The position numbers and the translations under genes are program-made. DNA of 64,000 nt from contig NC_058369.1 of NCBI RefSeq assembly GCF_018350175.1, positions 14,322,001-14,386,000 on the forward strand, in the 5' to 3' direction. Source of the DNA: Felis catus (Eukaryota). Numbering within the stretch: the first letter of the stretch is position 1; each line of letters starts with the position of its first letter. This document shows, in pieces, positions 11,599-60,245 of the stretch. The notes under the pieces are model-generated. The model ran no database searches and was not told where the DNA came from. It saw only the letters and a list, made by a program, of their open reading frames with translations.

Positions 11599-16695
<5,097 letters not shown>

Positions 16696-16907: not shown

Positions 16908-18075
16908 TCACGCCCTCTCCCCCAGCACGCGCAGGTGGTAGATGACAATTCGGCCAAAAAAGTCAGCGGCGTCCTCAAATGTCACCTTCAGCCGGTCCAC
17001 CTCGGCAACTGGCACAGGGAAGGTGTGAGCACAGGCAGTCAAGGGAAATAGGTAGTTCATCATTTCCCATGTGGCAGCCCCAGCTTAGACACCACCAGTG
17101 TGCTGGGTGACGGGCCACACTGTGAGCCCTTCTGGGGCTCTCACACAGAACCGGGTACCATCAGCTCATTTTATAGATGGAACAATGGAGGTCCAGAGCC
17201 CACTTGCTCAAGGTCACATACCAGGGCCCACGGCTTTCGGAGGCACAGACCACCACCCCCGCCCCTCCCCAGAGGCCCAGGAAGGATATCTGAAGTGAGT
17301 TGTTGTCCTCAGGGTAGAAGTCCACAATCTTGCTAAGAGCCTCATTCCCCTGGGAACCTGCAACAGAGAAAGGGGCAGGTTGTGAGGCTGGGGTGCCCTC
17401 TCCAAACCCCCACCTTCCAGAGCCCTCCCAGTACCTTCCAGGTGACCCCGGCGACTGGAGAAACCCCCCTGGAACTGGATCTGCAGCTGGGAGACACGGA
17501 TGCGCTGAGGAAACTCTAGTATCACCCACTGGGAGGGGCCCTGGAGACAGACAGGGAAACTGAGGCTCACAATCTGTCCAGGCTCAGACAGAGCCTGCTA
17601 TGTGTGTCTTATTCCCACAGTCGATGGGGGGAGAGGTGGTGCGAGGGGCAGCTGGCACTCGTTCCCTCCGTGACCAACTCTACTGTGCCCAGCTGGAGTG
17701 CTCCTTAGTTCTCAAGGCACCCCGGACTCCTGAATCTGATTCACAGGATGGGCGGAGGGTCCAGGGAGAGGTGCCTCACCTGGTCCGAGTTCCAGCACGT
17801 TTCCTCGTTCTGATCGAACAGATGCTTCTTTCCAAACTGCCGAGTGTTGCGATTCAGCACTGAACTCACCCTGGAGGCACCAGAATAAGAGCGAAAAGAC
17901 TGGCTAAACCCAGCGCCGATGTCCCGCCCACCGGTGGGCCCGCCCCCTCCTCGCCTCCAGCTTACCCCGGCACCCCCAGCTCGGTTAACCCCGGGCTCAA
18001 GGGCCACGCCCGCCACTGCCCGTCCCCAGGGTCTCACCTGCTCACTGTCTCTGGACAAACCAAAGAGTGGGTCAT
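16908..18075 (-). CDS. NR2C2AP: Nuclear receptor 2C2-associated protein (TRA16), 139 aa, 5 coding exons; last intron is U12 AT-AC
   Basis: Exons complement(18038-18075, 17780-17870, 17435-17540, 17290-17357, 16908-17024) = 420 nt. MTHSLVCPETVSRVSSVLNRNTRQFGKKHLFDQNEETCWNSDQGPSQW...FYPEDNNSLQ|TFPVPVAEVDRLKVTFEDAADFFGRIVIYHLRVLGERA*. Confidence 0.96.
17025..17289 (-). other. NR2C2AP: U12-type (minor spliceosome) AT-AC intron of NR2C2AP
   Basis: On the minus strand: 5'ss CAG|ATATCCTTC; branch site TTCCCTTGAC (17047-17038); 3' end CTCAC|ACC. These boundaries restore the reading frame. Confidence 0.93.
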
Positions 18076-18440
18076 CTCGGCTCCACAAAGCCTCGCAGGG
18101 CTCAGCCGGTGTAGCCGGTGTGCGTATTCCGACGCCAACGCAGCCACAGCCGTTCGACCTTGACCACGCCTCAGAGTCTACAAAGGTTTCAAAGAAACTG
18201 CCGTGACCCGCGGCTAGATTCTCACAGCAGGTTCAAGTAAGGGAAACAGGTTTCCTGTGGGTTTCCGGGGGTCGCTCGGACTCCGAGCTTCAGTCTCTGC
18301 GAACAGCGCCGAGAACCAGAGCAGGACCCGGAACCACGAGGACACCGCGCAAGCGCACTGTGACTCAGACCTGCCCCTCCCTTGCTCTCAGGGCAGGCGG
18401 CAATTTGAACCCCGCCCCTCCGCGCCCGCCTCTTAAAGGG
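17900..18440 (-). promoter_or_regulatory. NR2C2AP CpG-island promoter / exon 1 region
   Basis: CpG-rich around the ATG; CGCGCAAGCGCA near 18346; GC boxes near 18409-18430. Confidence 0.65.
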
Positions 18441-19033
18441 CCTTCATCCAGTGCTGAGTTTTCTTTTGGAGCTGGAGGAAGAAGGGAGGCACCTGAAAGA
18501 ATTGTTTGCCAAGTTGTGTGCGGGGCGCCGTCTTCTGGTGCCTGCGGGTATAGAGCAGGGTATAGGGTATAGGAAGTCTGAGAGACTTCCTATAACGATA
18601 TCTCCCTACCTGGGGAAGTCAGCCAAAACCCATTCCGTAACTGCTAATGCTGCCGAGCGCTTCATTGCCTCCCAGGGACCAAAGGAAGAGTTGAGAAAGA
18701 GGCCACGATGAGCGAGTCTTCGTCAGCCTCGTGTATCCCGAATGCAACACAAGAGGCTTAGCCTCCAAATCTTTCTTCCTAGTAAACGCTGCCTGGGACA
18801 GGCTTCATGGAGGAGGGGGCGTGGGAAGTGGGTTTTGAAGGATGAACTGGGGGGAAGGAGGGGGTTGGCCAAACCAGATTGCACAAAGGCTAAAGATTTG
18901 GTTCACTGATTCACTAAACAAGAATTCACTCCCTGCTGCCCAGCCCTGTGCTGGGTGGTGCTGGGGACTGTGAGAAGCCTCAGCGAGAAGCCTCCTCCAT
19001 ACCTGAGGAGCCCTCAATTTTGGTAAGACAGAG

Positions 19034-20128: not shown

Positions 20129-20260
20129 NNNNNNNNNNNNNNNNNNNNNNNNNNNNNNNNNNNNNNNNNNNNNNNNNNNNNNNNNNNNNNNNNNNNNNNN
20201 NNNNNNNNNNNNNNNNNNNNNNNNNNNNNNNNNNNNNNNNNNNNNNNNNNNNNNNNNNNN
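20129..20260. other. Assembly gap (N run)
   Basis: 132 N. Confidence 1.
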
Positions 20261-23539: not shown

Positions 23540-23780
23540 AGGCCCCCCGCGGGGCGTCTGGGAACATTTAATGTGACTCTTGGGGCAAATGGGCGAACGC
23601 GCGGGAAATCAGACGTCGTCTTCCCCTGGGTGGGGTGAGAGGTGGAAGAAGTGGGGAGGGGGGTTTTAGGTAGGGAGAGCCCCCCTCCCTCGCGCCGCCG
23701 GAGGCCTCCAGCAGGCAGGGGCGCATGCGCAGAGCAGCCCCGCGGCCCCTTTATAAGCGCTGAGGCGGCTCTGGGGCGAG
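23540..23780 (+). promoter_or_regulatory. NCAN promoter
   Basis: CpG island with GCGCATGCGCA (NRF1 consensus) at 23721-23731 and TATA-like TTTATAA at 23750-23756. Confidence 0.75.
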
Positions 23781-23882
23781 CGGAGCGCAGGGCGCAGGGG
23801 CTGGACCCGGCGCGAACAAGACAAGCCGGAGCGTCCTTTGTGCCGGGCGACCGCCCCGGGATGCGTCCGAGCTAGGAGTCAG
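23780..23882 (+). other. NCAN: NCAN non-coding exon 1 (start approximate)
   Basis: Lies in a CpG island just downstream of TTTATAA (23750-23756); donor CAG|GTGGGG at 23882/3. Confidence 0.7.
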
Positions 23883-28286: not shown

Positions 28287-48231
<19,945 letters not shown>

Positions 48232-50492: not shown

Positions 50493-50498
50493 AATAAA
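50493..50498 (+). terminator. NCAN polyadenylation signal (3'UTR about 2.3 kb)
   Basis: AATAAA with an upstream TGTA; unique sequence gives way to repeat-derived DNA just downstream. Confidence 0.75.
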
Positions 50499-52730: not shown

Positions 52731-53780
52731 TACGATGGGAAGGAGTGGTTTTTCTGAATATCTGGCGTCAGAAAGGGTTCTATCCAGTTTACCAACCCTT
52801 AGCTCTCCCTTAGGTGGGAGATGCAGCAACTCCAGTAGGAGGAAGGTCCCCCTGGTCGAATTGGTTTCTTAAAATCCCAGGACTCAGTCTCACCGTCAGC
52901 CTACCTCCCTAATCATCCCTGCACCAATCAGGGTTTCCCCGGGGAGGTGTGCCACCGCACTCATTGGCTGAACTGGGAGTGGGCGGTGTCAGCCCCTTAG
53001 ACTCTCATTGTAGGAGTGGGGGTTAGAAAATTACATAGTCAAGGCAAAATAGGGAACTGGCACCGCGGAAGGGAGAAAGGAACCGCAACGGAAAAGGCGG
53101 GATGAAAGAAATCCCATGCACTCGTCCCTGGAAATACGCCTCTCACCATTCCCCCGTTCAAGGAAGCTAAGGCCAGCTGGAGCCCAAGGCTGTCTCACGA
53201 AGGGGCTGGACGCTGCCTTCAGATGAGTGGCTTGAGTCTCTTGGAGGGCTGTCACATCTGGTATTGAAGGATGAGCAGTTACACCGACCATCTCACTTCT
53301 ACAGCCTAATCGGTTTTACACTTTGTTCTCTTTTCCCTCTGTCCGTATCCCAGAAACTGTCAGTGTTTCTCAGGCCACGATCCCACCCCTACTCCACCTC
53401 CGCACCAGGGAAAATTTGCAACCTCTCTGCCTTCCCGATACAAGAACTCTCCATCCAGTTTTGCACACTTGGGTGCCTGGGGGACTGAGAGGAACCACTG
53501 GGTTTGTCAACGACCCAGTCGGGACAGGGCTGTGAAGGGCCAGACACATGGGGGATGATGCAAGGAAGACAGTGAAGGCAGAATGGGGGAGTGGAGAGGT
53601 GGGGAAAATTGGAGAGTAGAGGTGGTCCTGAGGAATGAGGGTGATGCTTCTCAAGCAAATCATCATCACACACCCCCAGCTGGGAAATGTTTTGTCCACC
53701 CAAGTACATTTATGAAGTAATTACCCATCGGCTGCCTCATTTTCTCATTCATCCAAAAAACAAAACAAAACAACTTTTTT

Positions 53781-53786
53781 TTTATT
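53781..53786 (-). terminator. HAPLN4 polyadenylation signal (3'UTR about 2.1 kb)
   Basis: Minus-strand AATAAA followed by GT-rich GTTGTTTTGTTTTG. Confidence 0.65.
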
Positions 53787-54483
53787 GAGCCCCTGCTGTA
53801 TGCTTTGCACTCACTGGGACCTCAGAACAGCTCTGGTACAGAGGAGGAAACAGGCTCAGGGGGGTTGTCACTTGGTCGCAGCGGCAGGATTTGAACCCAA
53901 CCCACCTGATTCCACAACTCACGGATGGGTTTCCTCAAGATGGATGTGACAATAAGGGGGCCTGGGGTTCCAGGAGGGGCCTCAGTGCTATTCCACGGAA
54001 GACCTTGGATCTGGGGGCTCCCACAGCTGGGGTGGCTTTGTTCATGGGCCATCTCTCCCGAGCTGGCTCTCAACGCTGGGGGGAGTTTGGCTGGGTTCTG
54101 ACCTCTTAGCACAAATTGTCCTTTAGAGCCTGTAGCTCCCTGTGGATTTTGAAGTGTAAAAAACATTCTGTCTCTCCTGTATCTCTAAGGAGTGAAACGT
54201 GGGGCAGGGGGCAGCTAGAGGAGAGAACTCAGTGAGAATGGAGATGTGGTCTCAGAGGGGAAGTGGGGAGCCCAGTGCTTGCACAGCATAAAGGGCTGGG
54301 GCTGCCAGACCTCTGGGGGTTGCAAGGGTGTCTCGTGCACAACTGTTGTCTGGGATATAGTTAGCGTGCAAACGGAGGAGTGTCCAGCAGCTCCAGAAGC
54401 CCAGCCATATCTGGAGATGCTGCCTGGGGCTGGGCCTCTCTGGTTAAGGAGCAGACATTAAATCCCGTGGGGTGCAGTTCCCA

Positions 54484-55849
54484 CCCATGGTAAGAAGTTC
54501 CTGAGAGCTGGGAGGTTGGTTGTCATGGAGACGACGTTGCCGGTCTCTGTGGTGACAGTTTGATGGGGTGGGGCCCTGCTGACATGGGAAAGCCTAGGGG
54601 GACAGGTGTTCTGTCACCCCAAACACCAGAGTTTGGCTTCCATGGCAACCATTGTGGGGTTCAAGCAGCTTGGAGAGGGAGCTTGGATGGGGGGCAAAGA
54701 GCTGGGGTGCACCTGGGGAAAGGGCAGCCTGTTCTCATGGTGAAAACTGGAGAACTGAATGTTGGGACACTCTCAGGACAGTTCTGGGGGTAGGGGAGAG
54801 TGGTCTTCACGGCTGTTGGTAAGGATGGGGACTTTAAGAAGCAGAGTTGTAGCTCTCTGGTGTCCCGGAGGTGAGATGGGAAACGTGTGGTATCCATGGT
54901 TACAGCTGGAGGAGGGAGGCACTATCTCCATGGGTGTGACTGATGAGGGAAGGGCTATGTGACTAGGTTACAGGTAGAAGTTGGGCTGGTCGCCTTGGTA
55001 ACATGGGAAGTGGGACAGCTTTCTCCACAGCTAGTGACACGGATCCTACGGATCCCTGGGCCCAGGGGATGGTCTCTTTGGTGACAGCCAGGAAAGAGGC
55101 CATCAAGTGGGAGCAGATTTGCTCCCTCCAAAGTCATACCTGAGGGGTGGGGCATGGCCGCCAGTCATGCGAGCCGGCTGGGGCATGTCAATCTGTTTTT
55201 GTGGTGACAGACGAGGCTGGTCTCCCCTGAAACTGGAGGAGCGGGGCTGTTCACAGTGACCGGGGAACGTGGCCTGTTATTCTGCAAACTTCGAGGACTC
55301 GCAGTGGAAGGGGGAAAGAATGGGAATACCTAATATCCAGGTCACCATAGGGAAGAGGACAGGAGCCCTGTCTCCATGTGACCACGGGGGCGTGATCACC
55401 TGGTGAACTCTGAGGTTTCTGTTTTCTATACATGTTGAGGGGGAGGGTTAAGGGATCAGTCTTCAGTCTCCAGGGAGATGCAGAGGGCCTGAGGCCAATC
55501 TCCAGATAATCCCGGGGGTCCAGCCTCCAGGAGACCGCGGGGGAGGGGGTGATTCTGTCTGTTTCCAAGTGACCTGGGGAGGCATTGCCAGTCTTCAGGA
55601 GACCTCAGCGTCTGTTGGCCTCCAGGGGTCTTCAGGGGGCATGCCCCATCTCCTGGAGAAAGTCGAAGGAGGAGGGGAAATCCACTATCCAGGAGAGGTG
55701 GGGGCTTGGTCAGTCTCCCGGGATTGGCCAGTCTATGGGGACCTCGGGGGCGCAGCCGGTGTTCAAAGACCACAGGAGGCCTGGTCAGCCTGCTACGCAC
55801 CGCAGGGGGAGAGGCCAGTCTCCAGTCACGTGGTCTGTCTCCAAGAGAC
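54484..55849. repeat. Dispersed array of RFX X-box-like quasi-palindromes in the HAPLN4 3'UTR
   Basis: At least 16 elements of 13-14 bp resembling GTTGCCATGGCAAC; individual coordinates are given in findings. Confidence 0.6.
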
Positions 55850-55900
55850 CGCAGAGCACTCGGCCAGCCGCCAAGCACCCCAGCCATCTGCGCCCAGGAT

Positions 55901-60245
<4,345 letters not shown>

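Follow-up and report, generated by a model that had tools for sequence, protein, structure and literature searches.

A dense cluster of X-box-like sites in the HAPLN4 3'UTR, probably an RFX-bound control element for HAPLN4 or NCAN

A cluster of sites resembling the RFX X-box, with a density far above chance, is present in the last exon of HAPLN4, in the part that forms the 3'UTR. The cluster is probably an RFX-bound DNA control element for HAPLN4 or NCAN, and we put the probability of the whole proposal, that it is a homotypic RFX X-box cluster acting as double-stranded DNA and tuning NCAN and/or HAPLN4, at roughly 0.6. The window, the complete stretch of 64 kb that was analysed, is a non-human mammalian NCAN-HAPLN4-TM6SF2 region, and the features in it are listed in Table 1.

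The HAPLN4 3'UTR and its surroundings

The final minus-strand coding exon was assigned to HAPLN4 by 97–99 % identity to the best matches from named mammals. NCAN, called from its lectican exons, lies on the plus strand, starting at approximately position 23785 and with its poly(A) signal near 50495, and TM6SF2 was called from domain content; we take these last two gene names to rest partly on synteny. The products of NCAN and HAPLN4 are partners in the extracellular matrix of the brain. As the HAPLN4 stop codon is at 55901–55903 and there is a single poly(A) hexamer at 53786–53781, the HAPLN4 3'UTR is approximately 2.1 kb in length, and the block of X-box-like sites occupies the stop-proximal two thirds of it. 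The stop codon, the hexamer and the HAPLN4 identity all agree with the location in the 3'UTR proposed in an earlier note on this DNA. The promoters of HAPLN4 and NCAN are candidate targets of the cluster.

Table 1. Position of the X-box-like cluster and associated features in the window
Feature	Position	Strand	Basis or remark
Whole X-box-like cluster, HAPLN4 last exon (3'UTR)	54484..55849		Consensus matches compared with shuffles
Distal block	54519..55354		11 elements, 10 of them 14-mers (2 bp spacer), near-canonical
Proximal (stop-side) block	55370..55849		7 elements, 6 of them 13-mers, GGAGAC/GTGAC-type halves
X-box with perfect right half	54636..54649		Rodent orthologous stretch V-A-M-E-T, codons spell GTNGCNATGGARAC
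Two more good sites	54890..54971		54890, 14-mer, 2 strict mismatches; 54959, 13-mer, 1 mismatch
Sole exact strict-consensus match within block	54989..55002		RTNRCC N1-3 RGYAAC
HAPLN4 poly(A) signal AATAAA	53781..53786	-	Sole AATAAA/ATTAAA of that strand in 53000-56000
HAPLN4 3'UTR	53765..55900	-	Stop codon and poly(A) hexamer; end at 53765 placed from the poly(A) signal
HAPLN4 stop codon	55901-55903	-	Open reading frames
HAPLN4 last exon, coding part (second Link domain and tail)	55901..56293	-	
CpG island, last two HAPLN4 exons	55601..57300		Overlaps proximal end of the cluster
Estimated HAPLN4 promoter, TATA-like TTTAAA	60360..60405	-	Start ~60370 estimated from sequence; cluster 4.5-5.9 kb away
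Estimated NCAN promoter, TATA box	23750..23790	+	Start ~23785, an estimate; cluster ~31 kb away

A 38-residue Gly/Trp-rich tail of HAPLN4 (55904–56017, minus strand) was near-invariant in placental mammals; marsupials and the platypus group have a shorter tail, and that of other vertebrates is unrelated. Two ankyrin-repeat exons found at 14277–15015 on the plus strand (Pfam, below curated cut-offs) presumably belong, judging from synteny, to RFXANK, which encodes a subunit of the RFX5 complex, approximately 9 kb upstream of NCAN. The nearness of RFXANK to the cluster is probably a coincidence. Two runs of N (assembly gaps) at 20129–20260 and 42147–42350 lie far from the cluster.

Number and density of X-box-like sites

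Sixteen 13- and 14-mers resembling RFX dimer sites had been listed in the earlier note, and each was found once in the window, at exactly the start position claimed. Motifs were scored with published consensus patterns rather than RFX weight matrices. Using the degenerate X-box consensus RYYNYY N1-3 RRNRAC, as given in the accessible text of PMC2375033, 13 of the 75 matches in the window were inside the 1366 bp block at 54484–55849, against a mean of 2.3 in dinucleotide shuffles, none of which (0/500) reached 13. The next-best 1366 bp window contained five degenerate matches, consistent with the claim that no equal density is found elsewhere in the 64 kb. To correct for the post hoc choice of the region, the complete window was also shuffled in 1 kb blocks (n=60), giving a best-window maximum of 9 compared with the 13 observed. 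Four stricter published forms of the X-box produced 8, 6, 6 and 3 matches in the block (0/500 shuffles each), and the strictest form, RTNRCC N1-3 RGYAAC, produced one (10/500 shuffles), with three in the whole window. Patterns built in this analysis were also concentrated in the block, which contained 12 of the 20 window matches to a symmetric pattern at ≤1 mismatch and, for narrowed patterns, for example eight of 13. The statistics are nevertheless carried by the published patterns, as those built here were partly fitted to the locus. The local density of sites for one factor is thus far above background, as in a homotypic cluster.

Like the X-box, the dimer site of RFX1-4, the elements consist of inverted half-sites with a 1–2 bp spacer, and 11 of the 16 listed fit the degenerate consensus. 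Only one is an exact match to the strict form RTNRCC N1-3 RGYAAC and nine of the 16 are within two mismatches of it. The position and density of the 16 RFX-like elements therefore stand, but their quality does not in every case, as the stop-proximal 13-mers are weak and three elements (54731, 55341 and 55370) fail both the degenerate test and the strict test at ≤2 mismatches. Additional candidate elements that had not been listed were found at 55220, 55246, 55256, 55395, 55628 and 55648. According to the accessible text of PMC2375033, regulation cannot be predicted from a single match to the degenerate consensus.

Two weaker X-box-like elements (54319 and 54360; 54319–54373) were found beyond the distal end of the block. 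The density of loose matches in the remaining 3'UTR is approximately twice the background, so the cluster may fade rather than stop at 54484. Loose matches (≤2 mismatches) to the symmetric pattern had their second-highest density, 7 per kb, at 17000–18250, adjoining a CpG island (17701–18800), and this peak was absent when the published X-box patterns were used.

Two blocks of sites

The anatomy of the cluster was examined with 18 elements, the 16 listed together with 55220 and 55648, which fall into a distal and a proximal block (Table 1). A half-site within one mismatch of RGYAAC was present in nine of the 11 distal elements compared with one of the seven proximal elements (Fisher p=0.013), and six of the seven proximal elements had three or four mismatches to the strict form. 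The distal block is likely the RFX-occupied core, and the proximal block would represent either weak sites or sites for another factor. The elements are spaced 24 to 189 bp apart, and no helical phasing was detected among the 18. A mild polarity common to the elements (Fisher p=0.023) was seen at position 4 of the half-sites, which was T in 13 and A in two of the 18 left halves, and T in seven and A in nine of the right halves. The flanks of the elements are G-rich on the plus strand, and the most enriched hexamer, TCTCCA/TGGAGA, was found 11 times against 1.5 expected.

The proximal 13-mers might be read by a dimeric DNA-binding factor other than RFX, and they resemble what we take to be EBF-, SMAD- or zinc-finger-like sites, or, once transcribed, they might serve as m6A sites close to the stop codon of the mRNA. 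The poor strict fit of six of the seven and the abundance of the TCTCCA/TGGAGA hexamer are consistent with a non-RFX factor, and DRACH motifs on the mRNA strand numbered 43 compared with 33.6 in shuffles (10/1000), with no excess on the other strand. However, five of the seven (55466, 55523, 55561, 55591 and 55837) still match the degenerate X-box, the strongest DRACH pentamers were not enriched (223/1000), and methylation would leave the inverted symmetry unexplained. We therefore regard this reading, in either version, as improbable.

Several right half-sites (54543–55210) continue into TGACAG or TTACAG, and TGACAG is present four times in the block where approximately one is expected. We take TGACAG to be a MEIS/TGIF-type motif, and composite sites that include it are possible. 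An isolated near-perfect X-box, one of the three exact strict matches in the window, was found at 32215–32228 in an NCAN intron.

RFX occupancy projected from mouse

The portion of Table S8 available from a mouse ependymal ChIP-seq study (Lemeille et al. 2020; PMC7498320) lists, at either gene, one peak for RFX1 (RFX1_3846, Hapln4 +6295 / Ncan +31121) and one for RFX3 (RFX3_3666, Hapln4 +6242 / Ncan +31174), and no peak for RFX2; the total number of ependymal peaks was 7440, 9318 and 1250 for RFX1, RFX3 and RFX2, respectively. The mouse peaks were placed in the window by their distance from estimated start sites, not by sequence alignment, and the distance between the HAPLN4 and NCAN start sites is 37.4 kb in mouse and approximately 36.6 kb in the window. 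The projected positions were 54075–54128 when measured from the HAPLN4 side, 54215–54267 when scaled proportionally and 54906–54959 when measured from the NCAN side. All six values are within the HAPLN4 3'UTR; the two from the NCAN side fall in the distal block and the other four lie 220–410 bp past the distal end of the array. Hence, in the table rows available, the sole RFX1 and RFX3 peaks of the 37 kb two-gene interval project to the motif-bearing 3'UTR. In the same rows no peak was listed at +8.4 kb from Ncan, the projected position of the NCAN-intron X-box at 32215.

RFX very probably binds at the HAPLN4 3'UTR cluster, and we infer that the mouse peak corresponds exactly to the block seen in the window. 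One peak per factor does not imply 16 bound sites, which counts against binding along the full array. The identification of the elements as RFX sites is thus supported by the projected RFX1 and RFX3 peaks, by the dimer-type half-sites and by one site that is kept in a rodent (see below), but it does not extend comfortably to the weak proximal 13-mers. Neither Hapln4 nor Ncan was found in the readable supplements of an RFX4 study (PMC10884155) and an Rfx6 study (PMC4542305), which are small files that perhaps contain no peak lists, and neither gene is named in the main text, as available, of a preprint on RFX3 in human neurons.

Conservation of individual sites

Orthologous UTR sequence was represented by two mis-modelled proteins only, P0025 from a rodent (Scotinomys) and P0018 from a macaque. 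The 90-residue tail of P0025 aligns to 54678–54578 with a score of 38.8, compared with at most 25.3 in eight shuffles, and reads V-A-M-E-T exactly over site 54636; the rodent DNA at this place is therefore GTNGCNATGGARAC. With uniform codon use, the probability that the rodent orthologue of 54636 is compatible with an X-box was 0.25, compared with at most 0.042 in 12 shuffled tails. Back-translation of the rest of the tail indicated that an X-box is unlikely at the places of 54543 and 54519. P0018, a read-through resulting from a frameshifted model, covers approximately 55900–55636. It does not fit the strict pattern of this analysis at 55837, where the probability of a degenerate fit was 0.08, and its back-translation included nothing that fits an X-box at 55648. 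As 54636 is kept in the rodent and the others examined do not fit in the rodent or the macaque, this distal site appears to be old while other sites appear to turn over between species. A protein search with the rodent tail recovered only itself among 148 candidates, and a search with one UTR frame recovered two proteins, with no usable orthologous UTR.

DNA element, RNA structure, repeat or coding remnant

When the left and right halves of the 16 listed elements were compared, 62 of 96 positions were complementary to the element's own partner and 61.0 to swapped partners (P=0.41). Each half follows the common consensus irrespective of its partner, as expected for a dimeric DNA-binding protein in which two subunits each read one half, and this is not what a hairpin requires. 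The earlier note had suggested, as an alternative, that the HAPLN4 mRNA carries a series of short hairpins. The elements are indeed quasi-palindromic, and isolated stems at 55837 and 55523 have energies of -5 and -8 kcal/mol. However, besides the absence of partner-specific complementarity, pairing is lower on the mRNA strand than on the other strand (57/80 versus 65/80), the pairing probability in context exceeds 0.5 for one of the 16 stems, a z of -2 was not reached in any of 14 folding windows, and the four Rfam matches in 53000–56500, at E values up to 5, include none at curated score. Hairpins are thus highly improbable, and a structured RNA array, with partner-specific pairing and a stable fold on the transcribed strand, is largely refuted. 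Decayed coding sequence derived from a lost mucin-like HAPLN4 tail was tested because the 14-mers translate as V-T/A-M-E-T-like on the sense strand, and peptide-like words do recur in the sense translations. Against this, there is no continuous sense frame, none of the four UTR frames tested had a Pfam match, and the stretch that follows the last Link motif has a median length of 28.5 residues in 92 HAPLN4-type proteins from sharks to mammals (species-named proteins taken from the 120 matches listed; six without species names, aggrecan and HAPLN3 were left out). The seven tails of at least 84 residues comprise three misplacements of the pattern, two Glu/Lys runs in cod and two mis-modelled read-throughs. 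The broken frame, the short tails across species and the lack of a Pfam match largely refute a decayed coding tail, to which we assign a very low probability.

The elements may also be remnants of an old local duplication, or of a decayed repeat, whose founding unit contained an X-box. This would fit the common polarity at position 4, the slight likeness of flanks 4–20 nt out from the elements (0.308 versus 0.282 when letter-shuffled) and an L-E/D-x-G pattern that, by eye, recurs over the proximal block in the macaque read-through. However, the spacings are irregular and have no helical phase, gapped flank similarity is at the level of chance (p=0.23 for the distal and 0.73 for the proximal block), and the flank excess is nearly kept at a shift of 1 nt (0.297) and gone by 13–30 nt (p=0.27). 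An excess that is out of register and lost beyond 12 nt points to the G-rich composition. Tandem Repeats Finder reported no array over the block, the sole row inside it being 41 bp long with 2.3 copies (55701–55741), so the earlier description of the cluster as something other than a simple tandem repeat was correct. The periodic head-to-tail units with similar flanks that characterise a tandem repeat or VNTR were not found, and the lack of a tandem array together with flanks at chance excludes a recent repeat. An old duplication is improbable, and such an origin would be compatible with a present function in RFX binding.

Expression after loss of RFX factors

In the accessible part of PMC7498320, expression of Ncan was increased 1.9-fold (log2 +0.93, P 1.7e-5) in Rfx3-null ependymal cells only, and Hapln4 was absent from the differential list; the authors of that study hold that up-regulated genes are probably indirect effects. 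In Rfx2-null testis, as recorded in the available portion of PMC4498915 (Table S1), both Ncan (log2 -2.65) and Hapln4 (log2 -1.63) were down at P30, and no change was listed for either gene at P21. Both genes appear there without ChIP target status, meaning that they have no promoter peak. As 640 genes were down-regulated at P30, after spermatid arrest, the drop in Ncan and Hapln4 could be indirect, via the arrested spermatids.

An exonic enhancer had been proposed. The cluster does lie in an exon, between the HAPLN4 stop codon and the poly(A) signal, but the rise of Ncan in Rfx3-null ependymal cells speaks against activation, and the knockout signs also allow a silencer role. Published reporter work, as far as the accessible texts go, includes repeated RFX motifs that acted both as enhancers and as promoters in neurons (Nguyen et al. 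2016, PMC4971761) and RFX motifs that alone were insufficient, and silent, in mouse embryo reporters (PMC12119339). Clusters of low-affinity sites can attain high occupancy in yeast and in vitro (PMC9452512, available in part).

Discussion

In the mechanism we propose, dimers of RFX1, RFX2 or RFX3 would bind a few good 14 bp sites in the distal block and the surrounding weaker sites would raise the total occupancy, by analogy with the clusters described in the accessible part of PMC9452512. The bound element would then tune transcription of NCAN and/or HAPLN4, and the sign of the effect would depend on the cell type and the RFX paralogue. The motif density, the dimer-type symmetry, the RFX1 and RFX3 peaks where the mouse positions project and one conserved site are observations; we infer that the weak sites add occupancy, that NCAN and HAPLN4 are the targets and what the direction of the effect may be. 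The main rival is that RFX binds only two to four good distal sites, leaving NCAN and HAPLN4 unaffected or controlling a different gene, and that the rest are debris of turnover or lineage-specific near-matches. A single peak per factor, the single exact strict match, the discordant knockout signs, the loss of 55837 in macaque and the probable loss of 54543 and 54519 in the rodent would all be accounted for in this way. Nevertheless, near-sites are far more numerous than expected by chance and would hardly have persisted unless selected or derived from a common origin, and in the data available each neighbouring gene changes expression in at least one tissue when an RFX factor is lost, so we consider it unlikely that RFX binds a few sites with no consequence for NCAN or HAPLN4.

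Enhancers that overlap exons and 3'UTRs are a general class. The HAPLN4 cluster is like them in being a candidate DNA regulatory element that overlaps an exon of the mature mRNA, and unlike them in that its knockout signs allow a silencer. It shares with homotypic low-affinity clusters the many imperfect sites for one factor, the irregular spacing, the unrelated spacers and the apparent turnover between species, and differs from the known examples in that additive occupancy would here be expected by analogy. That the mouse RFX1 and RFX3 peaks project to this 3'UTR, in the rows available, is as expected for X-boxes. However, validated X-boxes are mostly near start sites, with distal ones the exception (PMC5838959, accessible text), and the HAPLN4 3'UTR instead has 13–18 mostly imperfect sites over 1.35 kb. 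The RFX distal enhancers with neuronal promoter activity described in the accessible text of Nguyen et al. (2016; PMC4971761) also have RFX motifs away from gene starts, but the HAPLN4 cluster sits between two convergent genes, within a last exon that is transcribed.

Among the titles and abstract openings searched, none described an equally large RFX cluster or one at this locus, with supplements and most subscription papers outside the search, and a full-text literature search with one perfect X-box string found nothing. HAPLN4 appears only in an expression table in PMC9121601, and human HAPLN4 3'UTR SNPs are treated as microRNA-site variants, with an overlapping lncRNA noted, in the accessible text of PMC11754329. 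The RFX binding data were already present, unremarked, in the public supplement of PMC7498320, as far as it is available. X-boxes, homotypic clusters and exonic regulatory elements are all known, and the HAPLN4 cluster is a new, unusually dense example.

A more speculative extension, which we hold to be rather unlikely, is that the convergent lectican/link-protein pair NCAN and HAPLN4 is controlled by the cluster as a common RFX switch. The cluster would repress through RFX1 and RFX3 in ependymal cells and, through RFX2, activate in neurons or germ cells, and would also be an internal two-way promoter making 3'UTR-derived and NCAN-antisense transcripts. The leads that fit, from sources available in part, are that both genes drop in Rfx2-null testis, that RFX repeats give promoter activity, and that the HAPLN4 3'UTR overlaps an annotated human lncRNA and SNPs associated with traits (PMC11754329). 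If true, RFX factors linked to autism would be tied directly to perineuronal-net genes, and the cluster would be a candidate causal element for trait associations at the locus.

As clusters of weak sites and exonic regulatory elements are familiar, the finding is of interest mainly for the HAPLN4 locus and for RFX biology. Regulation of the NCAN/HAPLN4 pair is little described in the papers searched, and a defined RFX-bound element of 1.35 kb would provide a concrete target for editing. Given the cluster, HAPLN4 3'UTR variants could also act at the level of DNA, via the RFX sites.
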